A stretch of 64,000 bases of DNA from Escherichia coli. Lineage in GTDB: Bacteria > Pseudomonadota > Gammaproteobacteria > Enterobacterales > Enterobacteriaceae. Below the pieces are notes generated by a model. The model searched no databases. It had not been told where the DNA came from and was given only the letters and a program-made list of their open reading frames with translations. A program made the position numbers and the translations under genes. Every line of letters begins with the position of its first letter. Within the stretch, counting starts at the first letter, position 1. The DNA lies in assembly GCF_003018255.1 (NCBI RefSeq), contig NZ_CP027440.1; one strand, written 5' to 3'. Of this stretch, positions 7,529-58,500 are shown in pieces.

Positions 7529-8890
7529 ATGTCTTTTGATTTAATCATTAAAAACGGCACTGTTATTTTAGAAAACGAAGCTCGCGTTGTAGATATCGCC
7601 GTTAAAGGCGGAAAAATTGCTGCTATCGGTCAGGATCTGGGCGATGCAAAAGAAGTTATGGATGCGTCTGGTCTGGTGGTTTCGCCAGGCATGGTTGATG
7701 CGCACATCCATATTTCTGAACCGGGTCGTAGCCACTGGGAAGGTTATGAAACTGGTACTCGCGCAGCGGCAAAAGGTGGTATCACCACCATGATCGAAAT
7801 GCCGCTCAACCAGCTGCCTGCAACGGTTGACCGCGCATCGATTGAACTGAAGTTTGATGCCGCCAAAGGCAAGCTGACTATCGATGCGGCGCAACTCGGT
7901 GGCCTGGTGTCTTACAACATCGACCGTCTGCATGAGCTGGATGAAGTGGGCGTTGTCGGCTTCAAATGCTTCGTTGCGACCTGTGGCGATCGCGGTATCG
8001 ACAACGACTTCCGTGACGTCAATGACTGGCAGTTCTTCAAAGGTGCGCAGAAGCTGGGCGAACTGGGTCAGCCGGTGCTGGTGCACTGCGAAAACGCGCT
8101 GATCTGTGACGAACTGGGCGAAGAAGCGAAGCGTGAAGGTCGCGTAACCGCTCATGACTATGTGGCTTCGCGTCCGGTATTTACCGAAGTGGAAGCGATT
8201 CGCCGCGTGCTGTACCTGGCGAAAGTTGCCGGTTGCCGTCTGCACGTTTGCCATATCAGCAGCCCGGAAGGCGTTGAGGAAGTGACTCGTGCACGTCAGG
8301 AAGGTCAGGACGTTACTTGTGAATCCTGCCCGCATTACTTGGTACTGGATACCGATCAGTTCGAAGAAATCGGTACTCTGGCGAAGTGTTCACCGCCGAT
8401 CCGCGATCTGGAAAACCAGAAAGGCATGTGGGAAAAACTGTTTAACGGTGAAATAGACTGCCTGGTTTCCGACCACTCTCCATGCCCGCCGGAAATGAAA
8501 GCCGGTAACATCATGAAAGCGTGGGGCGGTATCGCTGGTCTGCAAAGCTGCATGGACGTGATGTTCGATGAAGCGGTACAGAAACGCGGAATGTCTCTGC
8601 CAATGTTCGGCAAATTAATGGCGACTAACGCAGCAGATATTTTCGGTCTGCAGCAAAAAGGCCGTATCGCCCCAGGAAAAGATGCCGACTTCGTCTTCAT
8701 TCAGCCGAATAGCAGCTATGTTCTTACCAATGACGATCTGGAATATCGCCACAAAGTCAGCCCGTATGTTGGCCGTACTATTGGCGCGCGTATCACGAAA
8801 ACCATCTTACGTGGTGATGTGATTTACGATATCGAACAGGGCTTCCCTGTTGCGCCGAAAGGTCAATTTATCCTTAAACATCAGCAGTAA
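7529..8890 (+). CDS. allB: Allantoinase
   Basis: ORF 7481-8890; start trimmed to ATG 7529 ([10 protein letters not shown]) after AAGGAG; amidohydrolase HxH metal motif ([10 protein letters not shown]). Confidence 0.9.
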
Positions 8891-8939
8891 TCTGGCCCTG
8901 CAATGCCCGTCCTTGTGGCGGGCATTCTCCGGTTAAGGT

Positions 8940-10247
8940 GTGTTTATGTTCAATTTTGCAGTGGGCCGCGAAAGCCTGTTATCAGGATTTCAGTGGTTTT
9001 TCTTTATTTTTTGCAACACGGTTGTGGTTCCTCCTACGCTACTTTCTGCTTTTCAGTTGCCGCAAAGTAGCCTGCTTACGCTCACGCAATATGCTTTTCT
9101 TGCTACCGTACTGGCCTGCTTCGCTCAGGCGTTCTGCGGTCATCGTCGCGCTATTATGGAGGGGCCGGGCGGCCTGTGGTGGGGAACCATCCTGACTATC
9201 ACCCTTGGCGAAGCATCGCGCGGGACACCGATCAACGATATCGCTACCAGTCTGGCGGTGGGGATTGCGCTCTCCGGCGTGCTGACGATGTTGATTGGTT
9301 TTAGCGGATTAGGCCATCGCCTGGCACGGTTATTTACGCCGTCGGTGATGGTCTTGTTTATGTTGATGCTGGGTGCGCAACTGACCACTATCTTTTTCAA
9401 AGGTATGCTCGGGCTGCCGTTTGGCATAGCCGACCCGAATTTTAAAATTCAATTACCGCCGTTCGCGCTCTCGGTGGCGGTGATGTGCCTGGTACTGGCG
9501 ATGATTATTTTCCTGCCACAACGTTTTGCCCGTTACGGCCTGCTGGTCGGTACGATAACCGGCTGGTTGTTGTGGTACTTTTGCTTTCCTTCTTCGCATT
9601 CGCTCTCCGGTGAGTTGCACTGGCAGTGGTTCCCGCTCGGCAGTGGCGGTGCTTTGTCGCCGGGGATTATTCTGACGGCGGTGATTACAGGTCTGGTAAA
9701 TATCAGCAATACCTACGGTGCGATTCGGGGCACGGATGTTTTTTATCCGCAGCAGGGCGCGGGGAATACGCGTTATCGTCGCAGCTTTGTGGCGACCGGA
9801 TTTATGACACTGATAACCGTGCCGCTGGCAGTAATTCCATTTTCACCGTTTGTTTCATCCATTGGTTTATTAACCCAGACAGGCGATTACACGCGGCGTT
9901 CGTTTATTTATGGCAGCGTTATTTGCCTGCTGGTGGCACTGGTTCCGGCACTCACGCGACTGTTTTGCAGTATCCCTTTACCCGTGAGTAGTGCAGTCAT
10001 GCTGGTTTCTTATCTGCCTTTACTCTTTTCCGCGCTGGTGTTTAGCCAGCAAATAACCTTTACCGCTCGCAATATTTATCGACTCGCATTGCCGTTATTT
10101 GTCGGCATATTTTTAATGGCATTACCGCCTGTGTATCTGCAAGACCTTCCATTAACGCTGCGTCCTCTGCTCAGTAACGGCTTACTGGTCGGGATTTTAC
10201 TGGCTGTTCTTATGGATAATCTTATTCCGTGGGAACGCATCGAATAA
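8940..10247 (+). CDS. ybbY: Putative purine/uracil permease (NCS2 family)
   Basis: 435-aa polytopic membrane ORF; synteny. Confidence 0.8.
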   Translation: MFMFNFAVGRESLLSGFQWFFFIFCNTVVVPPTLLSAFQLPQSSLLTLTQYAFLATVLACFAQAFCGHRRAIMEGPGGLWWGTILTITLGEASRGTPINDIATSLAVGIALSGVLTMLIGFSGLGHRLARLFTPSVMVLFMLMLGAQLTTIFFKGMLGLPFGIADPNFKIQLPPFALSVAVMCLVLAMIIFLPQRFARYGLLVGTITGWLLWYFCFPSSHSLSGELHWQWFPLGSGGALSPGIILTAVITGLVNISNTYGAIRGTDVFYPQQGAGNTRYRRSFVATGFMTLITVPLAVIPFSPFVSSIGLLTQTGDYTRRSFIYGSVICLLVALVPALTRLFCSIPLPVSSAVMLVSYLPLLFSALVFSQQITFTARNIYRLALPLFVGIFLMALPPVYLQDLPLTLRPLLSNGLLVGILLAVLMDNLIPWERIE

Positions 10248-10268
10248 TTTGTTGAAAAAGGATTGATA

Positions 10269-11414
10269 ATGAAAATTGTCATTGCGCCAGACTCGTTTAA
10301 AGAGAGTTTAAGTGCAGAAAAATGTTGTCAGGCAATTAAAGCCGGGTTTTCGACCATATTTCCCGATGCGCACTATATCTGTTTGCCGATAGCGGATGGC
10401 GGCGAAGGGACGGTGGATGCGATGGTCGCCGCGACGGGCGGCAACATCGTGACGCTTGAAGTCTGCGGGCCGATGGGCGAAACAGTGAATGCTTTTTATG
10501 GCCTTACCGGCGACGGGAAAACGGCGGTGATTGAGATGGCGGCGGCAAGCGGCCTGATGCTGGTCGCGCCTGAAAAGCGTAATCCGTTGCTGGCGTCAAG
10601 TTTTGGCACCGGAGAGCTGATTCGTCATGCGCTGGATAACGGCATTCGCCATATTATTCTCGGCATTGGCGGCAGTGCGACGGTCGACGGCGGTATGGGC
10701 ATGGCGCAGGCGCTCGGTGTGCGTTTCCTTGATGCTGACGGTCAGGTGCTGGCGGCTAACGGCGGCAATTTAGCGCGCGTGGCAAGCATTGAGATGGATG
10801 AATTCGATCCGCGTCTGGCGAACTGCCATATTGAAGTCGCATGTGATGTTGATAACCCGCTGGTAGGGGCACGCGGCGCGGCGGCGGTGTTTGGTCCGCA
10901 AAAAGGGGCAACGCCGGAAATGGTCGAAGAACTGGAACAGGGGCTGCAAAATTACGCCCGTGTTTTACAACAGCAAACTGAAATCAACGTCTGCCAGATG
11001 GCGGGCGGCGGCGCTGCGGGCGGTATGGGCATTGCGGCGGCGGTATTCCTCAATGCGGATATTAAACCGGGTATTGAGATTGTGTTGAATGCGGTCAATC
11101 TGGCGCAGGCGGTGCAGGGTGCAGCACTGGTGATCACCGGGGAAGGGCGCATCGACTCGCAAACGGCAGGCGGTAAAGCTCCGCTGGGCGTGGCGTCGGT
11201 GGCGAAGCAGTTTAATGTCCCGGTGATTGGGATTGCTGGCGTATTGGGTGATGGCGTGGAAGTGGTGCACCAGTACGGCATTGATGCGGTATTCAGCATT
11301 TTGCCACGTCTGGCACCTTTAGCCGAAGTGCTCGCCAGCGGTGAAACCAATCTCTTCAACAGTGCGCGAAATATTGCCTGCGCCATTAAAATAGGTCAGG
11401 GAATTAAAAACTGA
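10269..11414 (+). CDS. glxK: Glycerate kinase II
   Basis: ORF 10263-11414 trimmed to ATG 10269 ([14 protein letters not shown]); glycerate kinase family. Confidence 0.9.
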
Positions 11415-12268: not shown

Positions 12269-12453
12269 AATCGCACGGTTAGCCAGTAAATCTTCGCGGT
12301 AACCGGTGACGTTATTTAAATATCCCTTTTATCAAATAGTGTTTTTTGCTGTTTCATAATGTTTCAGGTCGTTCATTATGTTTTTGATTATCAACGGATT
12401 TGCCATTTTTCTTGTTTCAGCTTGTTTCACGTTGTAGCGCTTTGTGCAACGAT

Positions 12454-12479
12454 CGGTGTAGTTAATGGTGTAGTCAATT
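12454..12479. repeat. attL core of the satellite
   Basis: cggtgtagttaatggtgtagtcaatt identical to 26414-26439; imperfect similarity extends ~30 bp to the left on both copies. Confidence 0.8.
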
Positions 12480-26082: not shown

Positions 26083-26413
26083 AGAGCGGAAACATCATCC
26101 CTCACATTCTGAATGGTCATAATGACCACGCAGGCCATCGAGGCAACCATAGCGATCATCGTTACGGTTGGAGCTTTCCGCCATTGGTGGAAAAGGTGCA
26201 CATCTGGATCATCATTACGGTGATCAAGGGTATGTAAAACCCACCAGCCTGATTAAAGGTTAACCGGAAAAAAAATCCGGTAGCCCCGTTATGGGGATCC
26301 CCATATCGACATTAACGCCCCTCATGAATTGGTGCGCTTCCCCCTGGAAAGATTACCCGCCTGTATATTTCTTGTGTCTATTTGTTCCACGTTGTTTCAT
26401 ACAGTGCACCGAA

Positions 26414-26439
26414 CGGTGTAGTTAATGGTGTAGTCAATT
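26414..26439. repeat. attR core of the satellite
   Basis: Identical 26-mer to 12454-12479. Confidence 0.8.
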
Positions 26440-40824: not shown

Positions 40825-40901
40825 GCGCCCTTAGCTCAGTTGGATAGAGCAACGACCTTCTAAGTCGTGGGCCGCAGGTTCGAATCCTGCAGGGCGCGCC
40901 A
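40825..40901 (+). tRNA. argU: tRNA-Arg (anticodon UCU)
   Basis: GCGCCCTTAGCTCAGTTGGATAGAGCAACGACCTTCTAAGTCGTGGGCCGCAGGTTCGAATCCTGCAGGGCGCGCCA; cloverleaf, UCU anticodon, encoded CCA. Confidence 0.9.
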
Positions 40902-44226: not shown

Positions 44227-44270
44227 TTCTAAGTCGTGGGCTACAGGTTCGAATCCTGCAGGGCGAGCCA
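44227..44270 (+). repeat. Partial duplicate of the tRNA-Arg 3' end (attR of the remnant)
   Basis: ttctaagtcgtgggctacaggttcgaatcctgcagggcgagcca matches the 3' 44 nt of the tRNA with 3 mismatches. Confidence 0.75.
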
Positions 44271-44460
44271 TTTCCTCGCCATTTATTTGTTCCCTTTTAC
44301 AAATTACACCATCACTTTGTTGTCGCGGTTTTGCTAAATAATTGGAACACGTCAGACGAATAAAATGAAAACAGAAATTCTGCTAAACAATTCATCTTGC
44401 CAGGATTTTGATTAGGAAAGTGAAAAGGAAAGGAGCAAGCTAAGTTGCTCCCTTTAATCA

Positions 44461-48324: not shown

Positions 48325-50548
48325 TTTCGGACTCCAGTTGCGCAACCTGTTCTGGGTTTAAACCTGCTTTGAGTAATAGTGATTGCATCGAAACTTGTAA
48401 TTCGCGTTGAATTGTCAGGACGCGATCCAACGTTTCCTGGCTGATAACGCCTTCGGTGACCAAAAACTTGCCGAGCGGCAGAGAACTGCGTTCATGGCGC
48501 AATAACAACACGTTAATTGCTGAACGATTAATATGACCGAGCGTGGTCAGTATTTCGGCGAACAGGAACTGATGCGGCACATATTGCCGCCAGATTTCAC
48601 CGGCCTGCTGTTCCGTGAGCCACTGATGCTGAACCGCATTGTACAACATTGCCCGCGGGTCGTGACCGCGTCGGCGTGCATACCAGTGACGTAACCCCGT
48701 GACAATTTGTCCGCGCAGAACAATGACGTAACGCACTTTGCGTCCGACTTTACGCGTCAGGGCTGCCAGCGAAACCGGGTCAATACCATCTTCACTGCCG
48801 ACAATTAACTCATCATTTTCCAGACGCAGCGGCAGCACTGCATAATGCAGCGCCACGGAAGCCGGCATTTCGGCAATCAGTGATGAAGGGATCTGCCAGG
48901 CGTCGATCGACTCCCACGCCACGCCGTTTTGCTCTGCCAGCGCCTGTGCCAGCTGTTCGGCGCTAATCAGCCCCTGCATCAGCATTGAACCGCCCAGGCG
49001 TAGACCTTCGACGCGATTACGCAGTGCTGTATCGAGTTGTTCTTCAGTGATGACCTGATTTTCCAGCAGGATTTGGCCTAACGGGCGCAACGAGCGGGTA
49101 TCGCCAGTCACGCTGGGGAAGTCATGCGTTGTTTTATCCCACGCGACGCGACGTGGATCGCCGTGTTGAAGTACCTGTTTTAACGCGCGCCAGTTGGCCA
49201 TGAAGTTAATCAGGTTGCCCCAGAAAAGACGCAGGACAGATAGCAGCCCCTGCGTCAGACCGTAGTAGCCAGTGACAAAAATCACCCGCTGCACGATGCG
49301 GTTAACCATCAAACCAAAGTTTAGCCACAGCAGGGTCATTAACCATGCGCTGCCGCTGAAAATAGAAAGGAAATGCCAGGCATCGGGCCACAAACTTTCA
49401 TACGCCAGTAACAGCAAAAGCTGGATCATCACCAGCATCGCGAGGAAGCTGACAAAGTTACTGATTGCCCCTTTGCGGTCGCGCCAGAGAAAGTAGTTCA
49501 GCGTCAGGCTGGAGGTCCATTTGTGGGTTTTAAAGCCCTGGAAAACAATGCCGATGATCCAGCGAGATTTTTGTCGAACCGCAGTCGAAAAGGTATCGGG
49601 GAAATATTCGCGCACGCAGATCATGTTTGACGTCCGCGCGTGCTGTAAAAATTTACGCTGCTCGCGTTCTTTGGCTTCGTCCACCACCGGAAAACGGACA
49701 AAAATTTCCGTCATACCTTTTTCTTTCAGGCGGAAACCAATGTCGTAATCTTCAGTCAGACTCTGCACGTCGAAAGCAATACCGTCACCGTCAGCTAACA
49801 GTGCGGTCACGGCGCGGCGGCTGAAACAGGTGCCGACGCCTGCGCTGGGCACCTGTCCGGCGAGGGCTTCACGCACCGGAACATCTTTGCCATGCAGTTC
49901 TGAAAACTCATCAATGTAGGTCATGCTGGTGAAGTGCGTCCATTCGCGTTCGAACGGATACACTGGGATCTGAATCAGATCTTTACGCTCGACCAGATAG
50001 TTGAACAGACGCAATTCCATCGGTGAAATCACATCTTCGGCGTCATGCAGAATAAAACCAGCAAAAGCGAAATTGGCGCTACGTTCAAATTGGGTGATGG
50101 CGTCCAGCACGTTGTTCAGACAGTCGGCTTTGCTGGTGGGGCCAGGACGCGCGCAGACTACCTTATGCACGTTCGGGAAGCGAGCGCACACTTCGTCAAC
50201 ATCACGCTGAGTATCGGGGTCGTTGGGGTAGGTGCCAACAAAGATATGATAGTTTTCGTAGTCGAGCGTGGTCGCCGCCAGCTCGGCCATATTGCCGATG
50301 ACGCCCGTTTCATTCCACGCCGGAACCATAATCGCTAACGGTTTTTCATCTGGTTTATACAGTTCGCGGTAACTCATTCGCGGGTAGCGGCGATAAACAC
50401 TCAACTTGCGTTTAATGCGGCGTACCCAGTAGACGACATCAATAAAAAAATCGTCCAGCCCGCTGATGAACATGATGACCGCTAACGTTATCGCGATTAC
50501 TTTTAAGCCGTAGAGCCAGGTAGCAAAAACATCAAGAAGCCAGTCCAC
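48311..50548 (-). CDS. nfrB: Inner-membrane family-2 glycosyltransferase NfrB
   Basis: 745 aa, N-terminal TM segments plus GT-2 domain and C-terminal regulatory domain; overlaps the nfrA start. Confidence 0.85.
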   Translation of the reverse strand: MDWLLDVFATWLYGLKVIAITLAVIMFISGLDDFFIDVVYWVRRIKRKLSVYRRYPRMSYRELYKPDEKPLAIMVPAWNETGVIGNMAELAATTLDYENYHIFVGTYPNDPDTQRDVDEVCARFPNVHKVVCARPGPTSKADCLNNVLDAITQFERSANFAFAGFILHDAEDVISPMELRLFNYLVERKDLIQIPVYPFEREWTHFTSMTYIDEFSELHGKDVPVREALAGQVPSAGVGTCFSRRAVTALLADGDGIAFDVQSLTEDYDIGFRLKEKGMTEIFVRFPVVDEAKEREQRKFLQHARTSNMICVREYFPDTFSTAVRQKSRWIIGIVFQGFKTHKWTSSLTLNYFLWRDRKGAISNFVSFLAMLVMIQLLLLLAYESLWPDAWHFLSIFSGSAWLMTLLWLNFGLMVNRIVQRVIFVTGYYGLTQGLLSVLRLFWGNLINFMANWRALKQVLQHGDPRRVAWDKTTHDFPSVTGDTRSLRPLGQILLENQVITEEQLDTALRNRVEGLRLGGSMLMQGLISAEQLAQALAEQNGVAWESIDAWQIPSSLIAEMPASVALHYAVLPLRLENDELIVGSEDGIDPVSLAALTRKVGRKVRYVIVLRGQIVTGLRHWYARRRGHDPRAMLYNAVQHQWLTEQQAGEIWRQYVPHQFLFAEILTTLGHINRSAINVLLLRHERSSLPLGKFLVTEGVISQETLDRVLTIQRELQVSMQSLLLKAGLNPEQVAQLESENEGE

Positions 50549-50745
50549 ACAAAAACCTTACATTAACGCTGGTTATGTTTAGGGTGGCGTATATTAAGGT
50601 TTTTTATGAATTGTGACAGCTTTTTACCATTAATAGGTATGACTATTGCGGCACGTTATTTTTACACTGGTTATAAAAGTTGCCGTTTGCGTAGAATGTA
50701 GACAAAAGCGTGGTGTCAAGGAGGGGAGGTTAACGCAGGGAAAGA

Positions 50746-51882
50746 TTACGAAAGCCCGCTCCCAGCAAGGACTGACGCGAGATAGTTTCTGTCCATGGCT
50801 GCTTTTCGCAACTTACGTCTTAACCCTGCCTTGAATACCTTATCATTCGTCAAAATATTAATAGCGATGTGCCGTAGCCCTGAAAATAATTCTGCTGCAT
50901 TTCCTCTTCTTATTTTGCAGTCGTCTTCATTCATTACCACGTCCAGACGCCAGTGCAGCTTATTCTCCACGTGCCAGTGGTTTCGGATTGCTGTGGCGAA
51001 CTTCTCTGCGGTTAAATCAGCAGAACTGATATAATATCTGACCGTCATTTCTGGCTCTTTCTTTTGTTCTGCTATTATTGACCGAAAGGAGACTGCCACG
51101 CATAATTTCTTCAGTCCTTTCCATTCAAACGTGAAATCAATAAGTTCATCAGGGACATCGCAAACAATGTGAAGCCGGATTTCTTCTCTGCCGTGACTCT
51201 TTTCACTAATTGCGTAACTGTCATGCTCTGGATTATTTAATTCTTTCAGTGGGAATTTTTCCTCAAAGGCTTTATTAAGCCGCCCCTGATTTCCTTTTAC
51301 AGCGAATAAATAATCACCGCCCTGTTTTTGTATCTTCTCTGCAATATCTTTCTGGCAACCCATCGCATCAGTTGTGATGATTTTTCCTTTAATATCCAGC
51401 ATGTTAAGAAGTTCTGGGATAGCTGTAATCTCATTAGATTTCTCATCCGTCCTGATCTGTCCGATGACCAGACTGTGCATTGTTGAGAACGCACTAATGA
51501 CATGAATCGCTCCCCTGCGGCGACTCCTGTCATAAGAATGCCGGAGTGTTTTTCCATCGATTGCAATAACGTCTTTATCATCTGAAGTATGGCAATCTCG
51601 CATCCAGTTAATAAAGCACTCGTGAAATTTTGAAGGACTGATACAGGATACAACTCTGGCGATGGTATCGTGAACAGGAATACCATTTTCAAAATCACCA
51701 TATTGTTTTAAAAAATCGAGATGTGTTTCCCCAAAATCCTCTATATCTTCCCAGCCTTCTGCACCAGAAATAACGGCACAAATAGTCAACAGTAGAATAT
51801 CCGACAATTTATGTTCCACTTTCCAGGCTTGTCTGTAATCGGGGATAATAGAAATATGTTCCATCAATTTTTTAAGTTCCAT
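50746..51882 (-). mobile_element. ISAs1-family transposase (H-repeat-associated protein)
   Basis: 378 aa, [51 protein letters not shown]...; classic H-rpt ORF at the distal end of an Rhs element. Confidence 0.85.
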
Positions 51883-51908
51883 TTTGTTCTCCTTAATTAT
51901 GTAAGGAG

Positions 51909-52147
51909 TATTTGATCATGTATACGCAATAAAAAACAGCTTCAGGTAATGAGGAATATCTCGATTTTTAAACATAAAATGCGAATTACTTAGTACAAAA
52001 AATGTACTTCTGATGATCTTTCCCTGGTATTTGATCATGTATAAGCAATAAAAAACAGCTTCAGGTAATGAGGAATATCTCAATTTTTAAACATAAAATG
52101 CGAATTGTTTAGTACAAAAAAGCAGCGTTACGTGATCTTTCCCTGGT
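51909..52147. repeat. Two tandem ~119-bp direct repeats
   Basis: tatttgatcatgtata(c/a)gcaataaaaaacagcttcaggtaatgaggaatatct...ctttccctgg at 51909-52026 and 52028-52147, ~93% identical. Confidence 0.8.
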
Positions 52148-52272
52148 GCAGGAACTGAGGAAGGAACTTTATCAGGTTAAACAGGTGGTGAAGGGAATGA
52201 AGAACGGGATATCCGGCGTATTACGCGAGGTATAAAAATAAAAGCCGGGAGATTGTCACTCCCGGCAACATA

Positions 52273-52554
52273 TTATTTTTTTATTTCATTATATCTGATA
52301 AAAAAAGTATTTAGCGCATCATGTTCATCTTGTGAGAACAATAAAATAATTTTATCCCATGAATGTCCTGTTACTCCATAATAGTCTTCAATATAAGATT
52401 GAAGCCTTATTAATATCTCAATATTGACGATTTCTTTTGGCTCTCTCATTTGCCATCCATCCAGGAAAGCTTTTAACGCCGATATGGTATGCCTGCTTAA
52501 ATATAAAGCTGGTCTTTTTTCTATCATATCAATCAGTTTAACAATATCATTCAT
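52273..52554 (-). CDS. Putative immunity protein for the orphan Rhs toxin tip
   Basis: 93-aa AT-rich ORF starting 3 bp after the orphan toxin stop. Confidence 0.5.
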   Translation of the reverse strand: MNDIVKLIDMIEKRPALYLSRHTISALKAFLDGWQMREPKEIVNIEILIRLQSYIEDYYGVTGHSWDKIILLFSQDEHDALNTFFIRYNEIKK

Positions 52555-52556
52555 AA

Positions 52557-53180
52557 TTAAAACCTTGATGGAGTAATGGTGTATTCGCCAGGAGAGTATA
52601 TATCATTCAGCCAATCTTCATACTTTATACCAGAAGGATTCATATTATCAAAAACTGTATCACCTACTTTTATTGCTTCATGATGACCATTAGTTGCTAT
52701 ATTTTTACCTATTCTATCACTCCATATATTGCCAAAGGCACCTTGTTTATTTTTAGTTTCGAGTATGAGATGCTCACCATTTACCCCAGCTTGTTGCATT
52801 TTACTTTTTAACGCTGCGGCAAATTTATCGCATTGAAAAAGCTGTTTAAACTTATCACTTATTGTTGTTGCAAGATCCCTTGTTTTTGCGATATCGCAAA
52901 TGGTTAATCCTAATGGATCAATATAACCAAGGGGATTATGAACATATGCATAATTGTTTATCCCGCCTCTCAGCCCTATCGGGTCACTCACCAGGTACAT
53001 CCCTGTTTCCGGCTCGTAATACCGGAACCGGTTATAGCACAGCCCGGATTCCGTATCCTGCCACTGTCCTGCATACAGCAGGCCGGGGTCGGGGTCGGCT
53101 TCCGGGTCCAGCTCCCCGCGCGGGTCCGGGTAGCCGGTGTCTGCGGGCAGACTGAGTGCCAGCCCCCACAGGCTGGTTTG
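52557..53180 (-). CDS. Orphan Rhs C-terminal module (core end with DPxGL motifs plus ~115-aa toxin domain)
   Basis: In frame with the upstream orphan core but separated by TGA; reads ...YRYYEPETGMYLVSDPIGLRGG...YIDPLGLTICDIAKTRD... Confidence 0.55.
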   Translation of the reverse strand, partial: QTSLWGLALSLPADTGYPDPRGELDPEADPDPGLLYAGQWQDTESGLCYNRFRYYEPETGMYLVSDPIGLRGGINNYAYVHNPLGYIDPLGLTICDIAKTRDLATTISDKFKQLFQCDKFAAALKSKMQQAGVNGEHLILETKNKQGAFGNIWSDRIGKNIATNGHHEAIKVGDTVFDNMNPSGIKYEDWLNDIYSPGEYTITPSRF

Positions 53181-54476
53181 TCACGGTCGCCACACGGTTT
53201 TACCTTCACTGTTAAAGAGCATCAGCGGACGGCCCGTCAGGTCGCTCACCGCATGATTCGTCCGCGTCACCCACTGCGGGGCCACCGACGGATGCGGCTG
53301 CCGTACCCGGCTGCACTGCTGGCTTATCAGCTCAAAGCCGTTAAACACCAGGTGCCGTACGCTGTACAGTTTATCATCGCGGTATTCCCGGATTTCCGCA
53401 ATATTGTCGCCGTCCCACAGGTACGTAAAACGGATTTTCTTCCGGTCGCAGCGTTTTTCCGTCCGCCTGCCGCTGGCGTCGTAGCGGTATTCCCACTGCT
53501 CACCCTGTGCGCTGCAATACCCGGTCAGCTGGTCACGGCTGTCCCACCGGAACCGCTCTGTTTCCGGGCGGTAGCCGTCACGGTGTCTGGTGCGGCTGAC
53601 CATCCGGCCTGCGGCGTCATAGTCATACTGCGTGTTTCCGGCCTGTTTCAGCCGGTGGCCTCCGGCATACTGGTCAGTCTCTTCACTTATCCGGTGCCTG
53701 CCCGCAGACTGCGCCTTCAGGTAGCCACAACTGTCATAGCCATAGGACTCATCGCCTTCGCCATAGCCCAGCCCGGTGCCTGAGGCTGTCACCGCCGTGA
53801 CCTGACCGTTCCGGTCCAGCCGGTATTCCCGCCGTGTTTCCCGTCCGTAATCTTCCCGGCTGGTGACAGCCGACACATTGCCCGCGCTGTCGTAACGGTA
53901 CTCCCGTACCAGTGAGGGGAGCAGCCCGCCCCATGTGGTTTCCTCCGGGAAAAATCCGGCGCGCTGGGTGACAAGCTGGCTGGCTGCATTCCAGCCCTGC
54001 TCACAGGCAAAACCCCGGTTACTGTGCCGGAGCACTTCACGTCCTGCCTCATCACGGCTGAACGTCAGCGTCTCATCCCCCGGCAGGATAACCTCCGTCA
54101 GTTCTCCGGCGGCGTTGTAGCGGTAGGTGGTTTTCAGCAGGGATTCACCGGGATGTCTGTCGCGTTCATCTTCCGGTGGCAGGATACAGCGGATGACGGT
54201 GTGTTCATCGGGGTAGTGGTATTCAATGGCCCGTCGGCCCTGAGTGGTGACATTCACCCGCCCGCGTTCGTCATAGCCGGTGCGCTGTGATGTGCCGTCC
54301 GGGCTGAAGATACCCGTCAGCCTGCCGGATTTGTCATACGCATACTGCGTTTTGCCTTCCGGCGTGATGACTTCTGCCAGGCGGCCTGCGGCGTCCCGGC
54401 TGTAGAGGATGGTTTCCTCCAGACCGTTAACCCTGGCGGTACACAGGCCATCGGCGTCATAGCGGTAACGCCAGGC
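53181..54476 (-). pseudogene. Orphan rhs core fragment (duplicate of the 3' core of the main rhs)
   Basis: ~1.3 kb ~98% identical to 55589-56885; 5'-truncated; ends in the same in-frame TGA. Confidence 0.75.
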
Positions 54477-54926: not shown

Positions 54927-55588
54927 CCTCTCATCCGCTTATATCTTCGAATCGTCTCGTAAAATTTCTGTTCCATCTCAGTACCTTTGGGATGATGATC
55001 ATTCAATCCTCGCTTCCACCACCTATGATGTAATTCTTCATGAATAATAACATCTCTTAATGCTGCACGAGACGAAAAACTATTTTTACCAAACTGAGTT
55101 CCTTCCCAAAGTTTAGCAATCCCTGTTCGCATAAACGGATTGTATTGAGGGATATATGTTAGTTTAAGATATGCAAAATCTTCTTTAAGTATGGCTGTAA
55201 TTGCCTTATTTCTGGCTCTGGCCGTAGAACCTGTAACATGACCGAGATCAGAAACATAAGTCTGTGGCCCTCTAGAAAACTCGACTGTTTTATTAATTAT
55301 ACTAGTTATAGCTAATCCCAGCGGATCAACATACCCACACGGATTAGGCACATACCGGTAAGTCTGCTCACCCCCCAGCAACCCCAGCGGATCACTCACC
55401 AGGTACATCCCTGTTTCCGGCTCGTAATACCGGAACCGGTTATAGCACAACCCGGATTCCGCATCCCGCCACTGTCCTGCATACAGCAGGCCGGGGTCGG
55501 GGTCGGCTTCCGGGTCCAGCTCCCCGCGCGGGTCCGGGTAGCCGGTGTCTGCGGGCAGACTGAGTGCCAGCCCCCACAGGCTGGTTTG
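54917..55588 (-). CDS. Rhs C-terminal module: core end (DPLGL...DPLGL) plus toxin domain with HExxH motif
   Basis: Same frame as the rhs core after TGA; QTSLWGL...LYAGQWRDAESGLCYNRFRYYEPETGMYLVSDPLGL...IIHEELHHRWW... Confidence 0.6.
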   Translation of the reverse strand, partial: QTSLWGLALSLPADTGYPDPRGELDPEADPDPGLLYAGQWRDAESGLCYNRFRYYEPETGMYLVSDPLGLLGGEQTYRYVPNPCGYVDPLGLAITSIINKTVEFSRGPQTYVSDLGHVTGSTARARNKAITAILKEDFAYLKLTYIPQYNPFMRTGIAKLWEGTQFGKNSFSSRAALRDVIIHEELHHRWWKRGLNDHHPKGTEMEQKFYETIRRYKRMRGWL

Positions 55589-58500
55589 TCACGGTCGCCA
55601 CACGGTTTTACCTTCACTGTTAAAGAGCATCAGCGGACGGCCCGTCAGGTCGCTCACCGCATGATTCGTCCGCGTCACCCACTGCGGGGCCACCGACGGA
55701 TGCGGCTGCCGTACCCGGCTGCACTGCTGGCTTATCAGCTCAAAGCCGTTAAACACCAGGTGCCGTACGCTGTACAGTTTATCATCGCGGTATTCCCGGA
55801 TTTCCGCAATATTGTCGCCGTCCCACAGGTACGTAAAACGGATTTTCTTCCGGTCGCAGCGTTTTTCCGTCCGCCTGCCGCTGGCGTCGTAGCGGTATTC
55901 CCACTGCTCACCCTGTGCGCTGCAATACCCGGTCAGCTGGTCACGGCTGTCCCACCGGAACCGCTCTGTTTCCGGGCGGTAGCCGTCACGGTGTCTGGTG
56001 CGGCTGACCATCCGGCCTGCGGCGTCATAGTCATACTGCGTGTTTCCGGCCTGTTTCAGCCGGTGGCCTCCGGCATACCGCTCAGTCTCTTCACTTATCC
56101 GGTGCCTGCCCGCAGACTGCGCCTTCAGGTAGCCGCAGCTGTCATAGCCATAAGTCTCATCGCCTTCGCCATAGCCCAGCCCGGTGCCTGAGGCTGTCAC
56201 CGCCGTGACCTGGCCGTTCCGGTCCAGCCGGTACTCCCGGCGTGTTTCCCGTCCGTAATCTTCCCGGCTGGTGACACCTGACACGTTACCCGCGCTGTCG
56301 TAACGGTACTCCCGTACCAGTGACGGAACCAGCCCGCCCCATGTGGCTTCTTCCGGAAAAAATCCGGCGCGCTGGCTGACAGGCTGGCCGGCTGCATTCC
56401 AGCCCTGCTCACAGGCAAAACCCCGGTTACTGTGCCGGAGCACTTCACGTCCTGCCTCATCACGGCTGAACGTCAGCGTCTCATCCCCCGGCAGGATAAC
56501 CTCCGTCAGTTCTCCGGCGGCGTTGTAGCGGTAGGTGGTTTTCAGCAGGGATTCATCGGGGTGTCTGTCGCGTTCATCTTCCGGTGGCAGGATACAGCGG
56601 ATGACGGTGTGTTCATCGGGGTAATGGTACTCAATGGCCCGTCGGCCCTGAGTGGTGACATTCACCCGCCCGCGTTCGTCATAGCCGGTGCGCTGTGATG
56701 TGCCGTCCGGGCTGAAGATACCCGTCAGCCTGCCGGATTTGTCATACGCATACTGCGTTTTGCCTTCCGGCGTGATGATTTCTGCCAGGCGGCCTGCGGC
56801 GTCCCGGCTGTAGAGGATGGTTTCCTCCAGGCCGTTAACCCTGGCGGTACACAGGCCATCGGCGTCATAGCGGTAACGCCAGGTCACGCCGCCCCAGTCA
56901 TGCTCTTCCGTCACCCGCCCACAGTTGTCGAGAAGATAACGGTATGACTCACCCTGCGGGTTGATGACTTCTGTCAGTTGCAGCGTGTCTTTATCATAGC
57001 GGTACTGCCAGCGGTGGCCTTCACCGTCCGTTCGCGCCACCGGCAAATCAAACGGGCCGTATTCCATTGTCCAGACAACGCCGTTACCGTCCGTGTACGC
57101 CAGCAGGTTGCCGTGGCGGTCATAGCGGAATCCTTCTGCGCCGGTTCCTGCCCGCTCAAGGCCGCTCAGTTTATGGTGCTGCTGCCACTGCAACCGCACT
57201 GACTGACCGCCGGGGCCGCGCATCTTCACCGGCAGGTCGTGACCACTGTATTCGGTGTGGTGTTCACGGCCCATCACGTCGGTGAGTGTTTCCGGCCGGT
57301 TGTGGTGGTCGTACTCTATGCCCAGACGCCGTTCATCCTGGCGGAATATCCCCGACAGCAGCCCCTGAGCGGTGTACGCCAGCCGGGTCTCTTCGCCCTG
57401 TGGCGATACCAGACTCACCGGCAGGCCGCGTTCATCGCACTGCTGTGTCCACGTCTGCCCGGCAGGGTCGGTGATGTTGCTGAGCAGGCCGCGCTCATCA
57501 TAGCGGTACAACCACACCGCGCCGTCTGCCGCCGTATAACGGCTTAACTGACCGTGTACGGCGTTGTATTCAAATTTCTCCACCCGTCCGGCAGGGGAGT
57601 GGCGGGCCAGCAGGTGATGGAATTCATCCCATTCATACGTGGTGGTGCTGCCGTCCGGCGCTTCTTCCCGCAGAATATTGCCGTCAGGATCATAGTAATA
57701 ACGGTGAATGCCCTTGCCGTCCGTCACGGTGGTGCAGCCGTCACTATAGTCCAGCGTGGCGTTGTAATAGCCGTCCGCCCCGGTGACATTCACGCACCGG
57801 CCCTGTTCATCGTAGGTGAAACGGCTCCACGTCTGGTCGTTATCGGACCAGCGGATGATCCGGTCCGCAGCGTCGTACTCATAAAACAGGTGGTAGTCCA
57901 GCCGCGCATCCGCTTCGGTCAGCCGCCCCCGCGCATCCTGTTCGTAGGTCGCCAGCGTCTGTATGCCGTTATCCGTGCGGTGAATGGCTTTCAGGTAGCC
58001 GCTGGCGTGGTACGTCAGTTTAAGCCGGATCCCGTCGGTGTGACTGACACCCGTGATGCGGTACTGGCTGTCGCGCTCAAACGTGATGCGGTTGCTGGCG
58101 GTGTCGCTCATCCCGCCCAGCATGTACATCCGGTCACCGGGGCTGTGTGCCAGGCGGTCATCATTGGTATCGTCAGTCACCGGGTGGCGCAGGCGCATTC
58201 CCGGAAAGGCGTCATAAAAGAAGCGGCTGCTCAGGGCATCACGGTCGAACAGCTCCAGGTAATCGTCGCGGCGGCGCAGGATATACTGGGCGTGATACGG
58301 GTTAACCGCCGTATCACTGTCTCCGTCGAAGGCAAAGTACAGCGTGGCTCCCTGGCTGATGATATCCACCCGGTTTCCCTGTTCACGCACCCAGGCGTAT
58401 TCGCTCCAGGAGTCGCTCCAGCCCACGCCCGTCAGGCCATGCAGTGGCAGTACAGAACTGTGGAAACGGGTGAAGGAGAGGGGGAGTGTCTGGCCCAGCG

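Follow-up and report, generated by a model that had tools for sequence, protein, structure and literature searches.

The closest described counterpart of the arrangement analysed in this study is the tandem array of H-repeats (ISEc1) at the RhsC locus of Escherichia coli K-12, the copies of which are presumably those named H-rptC1-C2-C3 (ybfQ/ybfL/ybfD). When the ISEc1 element of the window (the whole 64-kb stretch of DNA that was analysed) was compared by BLAST with the K-12 region 728000-742000, the matches covered positions 1-381 of the element, then positions 1-1291 and then positions 26-911. A 381-nt stack therefore lies to the left of the full copy in K-12, and the right end of this full copy is joined to approximately position 25 of the next one. 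The latter joint, at the right end of copy C2, looks like the unrecombined half of a nested insertion.

Two other systems are relevant for comparison. The first is the single copy of K-12, ydcC, which resembles the element of the window in its length (1291 bp), in its 11-bp terminal repeats, which are the same, and in its 378-aa transposase, the two elements being 96% identical. Normal single copies of this kind have one left-end unit, whereas the element of the window is followed by a second, stranded unit. The second system is IS30, an insertion sequence which targets its own terminal repeats and forms IS dimers. The accessible literature on H-rpt/ISEc1 provided only a brief mention of these elements, in the E. 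coli W genome paper (PMC3032704), according to which H-repeat transposition has not been observed.

Our analysis revealed that the window contains a new and rare allele of a known arrangement, i.e. of the tandem or partial H-repeats found at Rhs loci such as K-12 RhsC. In both cases a complete 1291-bp ISEc1 is accompanied by a partial left end in the same orientation, which abuts its exact left terminus. The two loci differ in several respects: in the window the outer piece is 119 nt long, not 381 nt, no third copy is present beyond the right end, the two ends differ in the type of their tails, and the locus is nfrB-rhs.

The tandem repeat and the ISEc1 element

The initial annotation of this DNA had described two adjacent, nearly identical 119-bp units, placed immediately upstream of the transposase start codon and extending towards an orphan immunity gene. 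The existence of such units was confirmed. Tandem Repeats Finder detected one array at 51908-52147 (period 119, 2.0 copies, 91% matches, score 399), only three arrays with a score of at least 80 being present across the 64-kb window, and a separate repeat search recovered the same 119-bp pair. The exact units (Table 1), whose similarity begins at 51908 when both are aligned, are 89.1% identical over an ungapped alignment with 13 differences. The repeat cannot be considered an assembly artefact, since three independent complete genomes share the identical junction and the units differ from each other. Its position had been described only in part correctly: the array is indeed upstream of the transposase ATG, at a distance of 25 nt, but it does not directly abut the immunity gene, from which it is separated by the last 90 nt of a symE-like gene and a hairpin terminator.

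Table 1. Features of the ISEc1 locus in the window and of related loci
Feature	Coordinates	Strand	Evidence or remarks
Right terminal inverted repeat (IRR) of ISEc1	50736..50760	.	begins CAGGGAAAGAT, perfect 11-bp core
Intact ISAs1-family (ISEc1/H-repeat) transposase gene, 378 aa	50746..51882	-	NCBIfam, Pfam
Single-copy leader with transposase ribosome-binding site (AAGGAG), outside the repeat	51883..51907	-	sequence read directly
Unit 1: non-coding left end of the complete inner ISEc1 copy	51908..52026	-	B-type tail TGTACTTCTGAT
Unit 2: isolated left end (119 nt) of another ISEc1 copy, same orientation	52027..52145	-	A-type tail GCAGCGTTACGT
symE-like type I toxin gene, 3' remnant	52146..52235	+	30 codons including stop, cut by the outer IS end
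Terminator-like GC-rich hairpin between A and T runs	52244..52266	.	common to the convergent symE remnant and immunity gene
Orphan immunity-position gene, 93 aa	52273..52554	-	ORF immediately following the toxin tip
Orphan Rhs C-terminal toxin tip (papain-fold toxin)	52557..53000	-	PF15643 Tox-PL-2, 5e-23; Rhs core end TIGR03696
symE-like gene loci	L005 3058-3387; L007 3147-3476; L006 2797-3090		
ISEc1-ISEc1 junctions at about position 25 (AF40, 2014C-3075, K-12 RhsC C2/C3 joint)	L016 (K-12 728000-742000) 8303-10916; L002 5416-5451; L010 2537-2572		

The gene adjoining the array encodes a transposase of the ISAs1 type. Its product was recognized by the NCBIfam model NF033564 (416.8 bits, with a cutoff of 70) and matched both the DDE_Tnp_1_assoc (PF13808) and DDE_Tnp_1 (PF01609) domains of Pfam; moreover, the homologous gene has been annotated by PGAP as an ISAs1/ISEc1 transposase.

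Each of the two units corresponds to the whole non-coding left end of ISEc1, which begins about 25 nt before the transposase start codon and reaches as far as the exact terminus of the element (...GATCTTTCCCTG, the 11-bp terminal inverted repeat). Both units terminate in ATCTTTCCCTG, the reverse complement of CAGGGAAAGAT, with which the element starts at 50736. This perfect 11-bp repeat is found, reverse-complemented, at 52016-52026 and at 52135-52145, where it closes units 1 and 2, respectively. When the IRR was compared with the reverse-complemented left repeat, 20 of 25 positions were identical for the outer (A-type) end and 15 of 25 for the inner (B-type) end.

With the inner unit alone, the element spans 50736-52026, which gives 1291 bp, the same length as that of other ISEc1 copies, and its positions 1-1291 can be aligned end to end (94-99.6% identity) with 11 ISEc1/H-repeat copies, including K-12 ydcC. 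The left terminus is fixed at ...CCCTG by about ten independent flanking contexts. In the window the ...CCCTG at 52026 directly precedes position 119 of the second left end, as in a stacked arrangement of the RhsC type, and the inner junction is the exact IS terminus, given a 2-nt (GT) ambiguity. No target-site duplication was found, there being no direct repeat between the left flank (GAGGGGAGGTTAACG) and the right one (GTATTTG... or GTGCAGG...). K-12 ydcC likewise has no such duplication; its absence in the window would be expected if the insertion had been followed by recombination or deletion.

Of the 13 differences between the units, four fall within the first 95 nt and the other nine within nt 96-106, in one 12-nt block that belongs to the inner portion of the terminal repeat. 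Each version of this block is a widespread end type among the other E. coli ISEc1 copies: the B-type tail TGTACTTCTGAT of unit 1 is also carried by K-12 ydcC and by the copies of loci L004 and L014, while the A-type tail GCAGCGTTACGT of unit 2 ends full copies in L003, L005, L008, L009 and L010. Outside the carrier strains, the nearest relatives of unit 1 are B-type ends located at unrelated loci (97.9%). As the block represents two widespread end types, the outer unit appears to be a remnant of a second ISEc1 copy and not a fresh duplicate. Judged from its sequence, the arrangement combines a complete element that has a B-type end with, beyond it and in the same orientation, the stranded last 119 nt of an element that has an A-type end. 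The earlier suggestion of a duplicated IS terminus thus holds insofar as each unit ends in the ISEc1 terminal inverted repeat at the exact end of the element; it has to be modified in that two different left ends have been stacked, rather than one sequence duplicated.

Two minor features of the units were also noted. GATC (Dam) sites are present at 51914, 52015, 52033 and 52134, i.e. at both edges of each 119-bp unit, and within the terminal repeats the GATC occurs only in the left end of ISEc1, the right end having GATT. A 55-aa ORF spanning both units (51916-52083, minus strand) owes its existence to the duplication alone.

Distribution of the two-unit allele and of other stacked ends

Of the 5,426 complete E. 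coli genomes, 5,425 contain ISEc1, the median number of places being 5 per genome. A 56-nt probe placed across the junction of units 1 and 2 was matched over its full length in only three of these genomes (strains DETEC-S792, JNE23-011 and JNE112863), in each case at the same nfrB-rhs locus, and with this probe no two-unit copy was detected at any other locus in the whole set. Alleles of the same locus with one unit are carried by AF40, 806883-9-2019 and SC407, and these single-unit alleles have the nfrB-side junction in common with the window. It had been pointed out in the initial annotation that an identical duplication in other copies would make it simply a part of the element. We have examined this point: the other ISEc1 copies have one unit and the duplication is confined to one locus, which indicates that it is not simply a part of the element.

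Stacked left ends of a similar kind were found in three further strains. At the same locus, the full copy of AF40 is A-ended and the last 25 nt of a B-type end adjoin it; in strain 2014C-3075 a full A-ended copy is followed by 25 nt of an A-type end, and in Z1323HEC0462 by 34 nt of a B-type end. The architecture and orientation of these stacks are the same as in the window, but their outer pieces are only 25 or 34 nt long, compared with 119 nt. AF40 is the most similar of them with respect to its genetic context, as it shares with the window the nfrB-rhs locus and the immunity and toxin genes; however, its end types are reversed (A inside, B outside) and its symE remnant is 29 nt shorter. In every stack the inner copy extends without loss to its exact terminus, which argues for a joint made by the transposase rather than for a random duplication. 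These exact-terminus junctions can be regarded as modest, sequence-level evidence of past H-repeat transposition in E. coli.

ISEc1-ISEc1 junctions were found repeatedly at approximately position 25, counted from the left terminus, which is the inner edge of the 25-bp imperfect repeat (Table 1), and this position may be a preferred site of ISEc1 self-insertion. Another candidate stack, hit H177 of strain Rb-50, was rejected, as it reflected a chance similarity to TTCTTTCCCC in the flank.

Origin of the stacked ends

We consider it likely that the repeat consists of two stacked ISEc1 left ends, the outer of which is the end of an older, A-type copy, and that this arrangement arose by a nested insertion followed by homologous recombination and is now an inert scar. 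According to this model, an A-type copy, the left end of which cut a symE-like gene, would have been resident at the nfrB edge of the vgrG-rhs orphan-toxin array. A B-type copy would then have inserted into this resident element at a distance of 119 nt from the left terminus, both copies having the same orientation and the predicted junction of the nested intermediate being TCCTTAATTATGTAAGGA-(0-12 nt)-CAGGGAAAGATTACG. Homologous recombination between the two direct repeats of ~1.17 kb would have led to the loss of one element-equivalent, leaving one mosaic transposase gene, the B-type end and a stranded A-type end. Alternatively, the same product might have been generated from two copies arranged in tandem, by an adjacent deletion mediated by the transposase. 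The possibility that the nested insertion is still in place was rejected, the sequence to the left of the IRR not being ISEc1.

The proposed sequence of events would preserve the nfrB-side junction of the resident copy, as seen in the single-unit alleles, and it predicts a mosaic element. The element of the window is indeed mosaic: columns 609-975 match the same-locus allele of AF40, and columns 1020-1291 match B-type copies present elsewhere. ISEc1 copies in E. coli are generally mosaic, and for this reason the crossover pattern fits the model without being a proof of it. The putative single-unit parent allele, in which the A-type end is joined to symE at 52146, was absent from the 5,426 genomes when these were searched with a synthetic query from which unit 1 had been deleted; the best match to this query was AF40 (92.9%). 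The order of the ends and the symE junction of AF40 differ at the same locus, and therefore at least two separate histories are needed.

A more speculative explanation, which we regard as rather doubtful, is that ISEc1 repeatedly inserts into the left end of resident copies, in the manner of the self-end targeting of IS30, and that the outer terminus in the window is an alternative end, defining a 1410-bp element. This idea is based on the presence of at least five independent exact-terminus stacks, two or three of which are placed at the inner edge of the 25-bp repeat. As in IS30, the junctions of ISEc1 connect the terminus of one copy with a site in, or next to, the terminal repeat of a further copy of the element. 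However, the transposases of the two elements belong to different families, and the junction in the window lies 119 nt inside the resident end and not at the repeat.

It is improbable that the 119-bp tandem duplication arose in situ, by replication slippage or unequal sister exchange at a 2-nt GT microhomology, with one unit having then diverged or been gene-converted from another ISEc1. GT does follow both units (51908-09, 52146-47), which provides the required 2 nt of microhomology, and the 25-nt piece stacked in strain 2014C-3075 is of the A type, the same as its inner end. Such a duplication would nevertheless have to match the exact IS terminus by chance, a coincidence which recurs in at least four other independent stacks. 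Moreover, the 12-nt block, with its nine differing positions, fits two pre-existing end lineages and not random drift.

A functional meaning of the duplication also seems unlikely. The unit could be the promoter of the transposase gene, a regulatory region or an alternative left terminus, and its doubling might then alter the expression of the transposase or the transposition itself. IS promoters are usually located between the terminus and the ribosome-binding site, and the unit comprises this whole region, so that a duplicated promoter region, as proposed in the initial annotation, is possible. Weak promoter-like hexamers, GATC sites at both edges of each unit, and the inheritance of the arrangement in four or more strains, with 5 SNPs between their IS copies, point in the same direction. 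On the other hand, a single consensus promoter-like site was located close to the transposase gene (51924-51896, minus strand); since it crosses the inner boundary of unit 1, the duplication does not include all of it, and the number of promoter-like sites found in the consensus scan equals that expected from shuffled sequences (3 versus 3.1). The rarity of the arrangement (3/5,426 genomes) and its absence from other loci also speak against such a role. The outer unit would add a potential second left terminus and would double most of the sequence that precedes the transposase gene; at present it is most likely an inert scar.

The least probable explanation, a small structured RNA locus or an antisense or type I antitoxin RNA tied to the adjoining symE-like gene, could be prompted by the use of the antisense RNA SymR in symE systems and by the ISEc1 left ends which adjoin full-length symE-like genes in ~80 genomes, but we found no support for it, since an Rfam scan of 50500-52700 at E<=1 yielded only Ssr1 (16.3 bits against a gathering score of 820), neither unit on either strand was clearly more stable than shuffled sequences (MFE z-scores of -1.25, 0.07, -1.54 and -0.01), symE has lost its 5' part here, the place of action of SymR-type RNAs, and the unit sequence is simply the ISEc1 end found throughout E. 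coli. The candidate RNA locus can thus be removed, and the odd repeat explained as a by-product of IS-on-IS events at the edge of an Rhs orphan-toxin array. Taken alone, the stacked ISEc1 ends are an ordinary IS scar of little importance.

The symE-like remnant and the surrounding locus

Beyond the outer unit, the flank switches to symE-like sequence exactly at 52146. At the DNA level, the remnant (the last 90 nt) and the 3' end of a full-length gene of the symE family are 93% identical, and in strain DETEC-S792 the region has been annotated by PGAP as a partial SymE pseudogene. The start of this pseudogene, at 52128, would be located inside the IS end; it was rejected, because homology to intact genes begins at 52146 (GTGCAGGAACTG). 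No Pfam match to the SymE_toxin domain (PF08845) was obtained for the 35-aa fragment, and the full-length relative in L005 does match this domain (1.6e-20).

The association of ISEc1 with such genes is not limited to the window. In ~80 E. coli genomes an ISEc1 left end is placed directly upstream of a full-length symE-like gene, which is convergent with rhs orphan immunity genes. The distance between the IS end and the ATG is 96 nt in both L007 and L008, but only 7 nt in L005. In L005 the toxin gene has lost its native upstream region, and any expression of this gene would therefore have to originate inside the IS. The locus in the window shows ISEc1 eroding a neighbouring gene (the symE-like toxin gene) and reshuffling the ends of an rhs array.

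In K-12, cusS directly follows nfrB, while in the window these genes are separated by a vgrG-rhs cluster with orphan toxin/immunity modules, ISEc1 being located at the nfrB edge of this cluster. The orphan immunity-position gene had no match in Pfam or NCBIfam. Between the end of the K-12 nfrB-cusS homology and the right end of the IS there are 45 nt (50691-50735, GTAGAATG...GGTTAACG), which indicates that the boundary of the island is not the IS end itself; in SC407 a further 71 nt are present in this place. A 300-nt direct repeat (52900-53199 and 55308-55607, 89% identical) represents the conserved Rhs core end preceding successive orphan toxin tips.

Several other repeats were recorded elsewhere in the window. 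In the segment 33820-34324, five 100-bp units (94% alike) are arranged in tandem, the consensus of which contains REP/BIME-like palindromes (GCCGGATAAGGCGTTCACGCCGCATCC). A tRNA-Arg(TCT) gene is located at 40825-40901, and a 46-nt direct repeat of its 3' end (93%) occurs 3.4 kb downstream, at 44227-44272. These two sequences are probably the attachment sites of a small remnant that has been integrated; in K-12, the DLP12 prophage is located in this neighbourhood. Finally, a 75-nt direct repeat (80% identical) is formed by 12405-12479 and 26365-26439, the copies of which are 13,960 bp apart.
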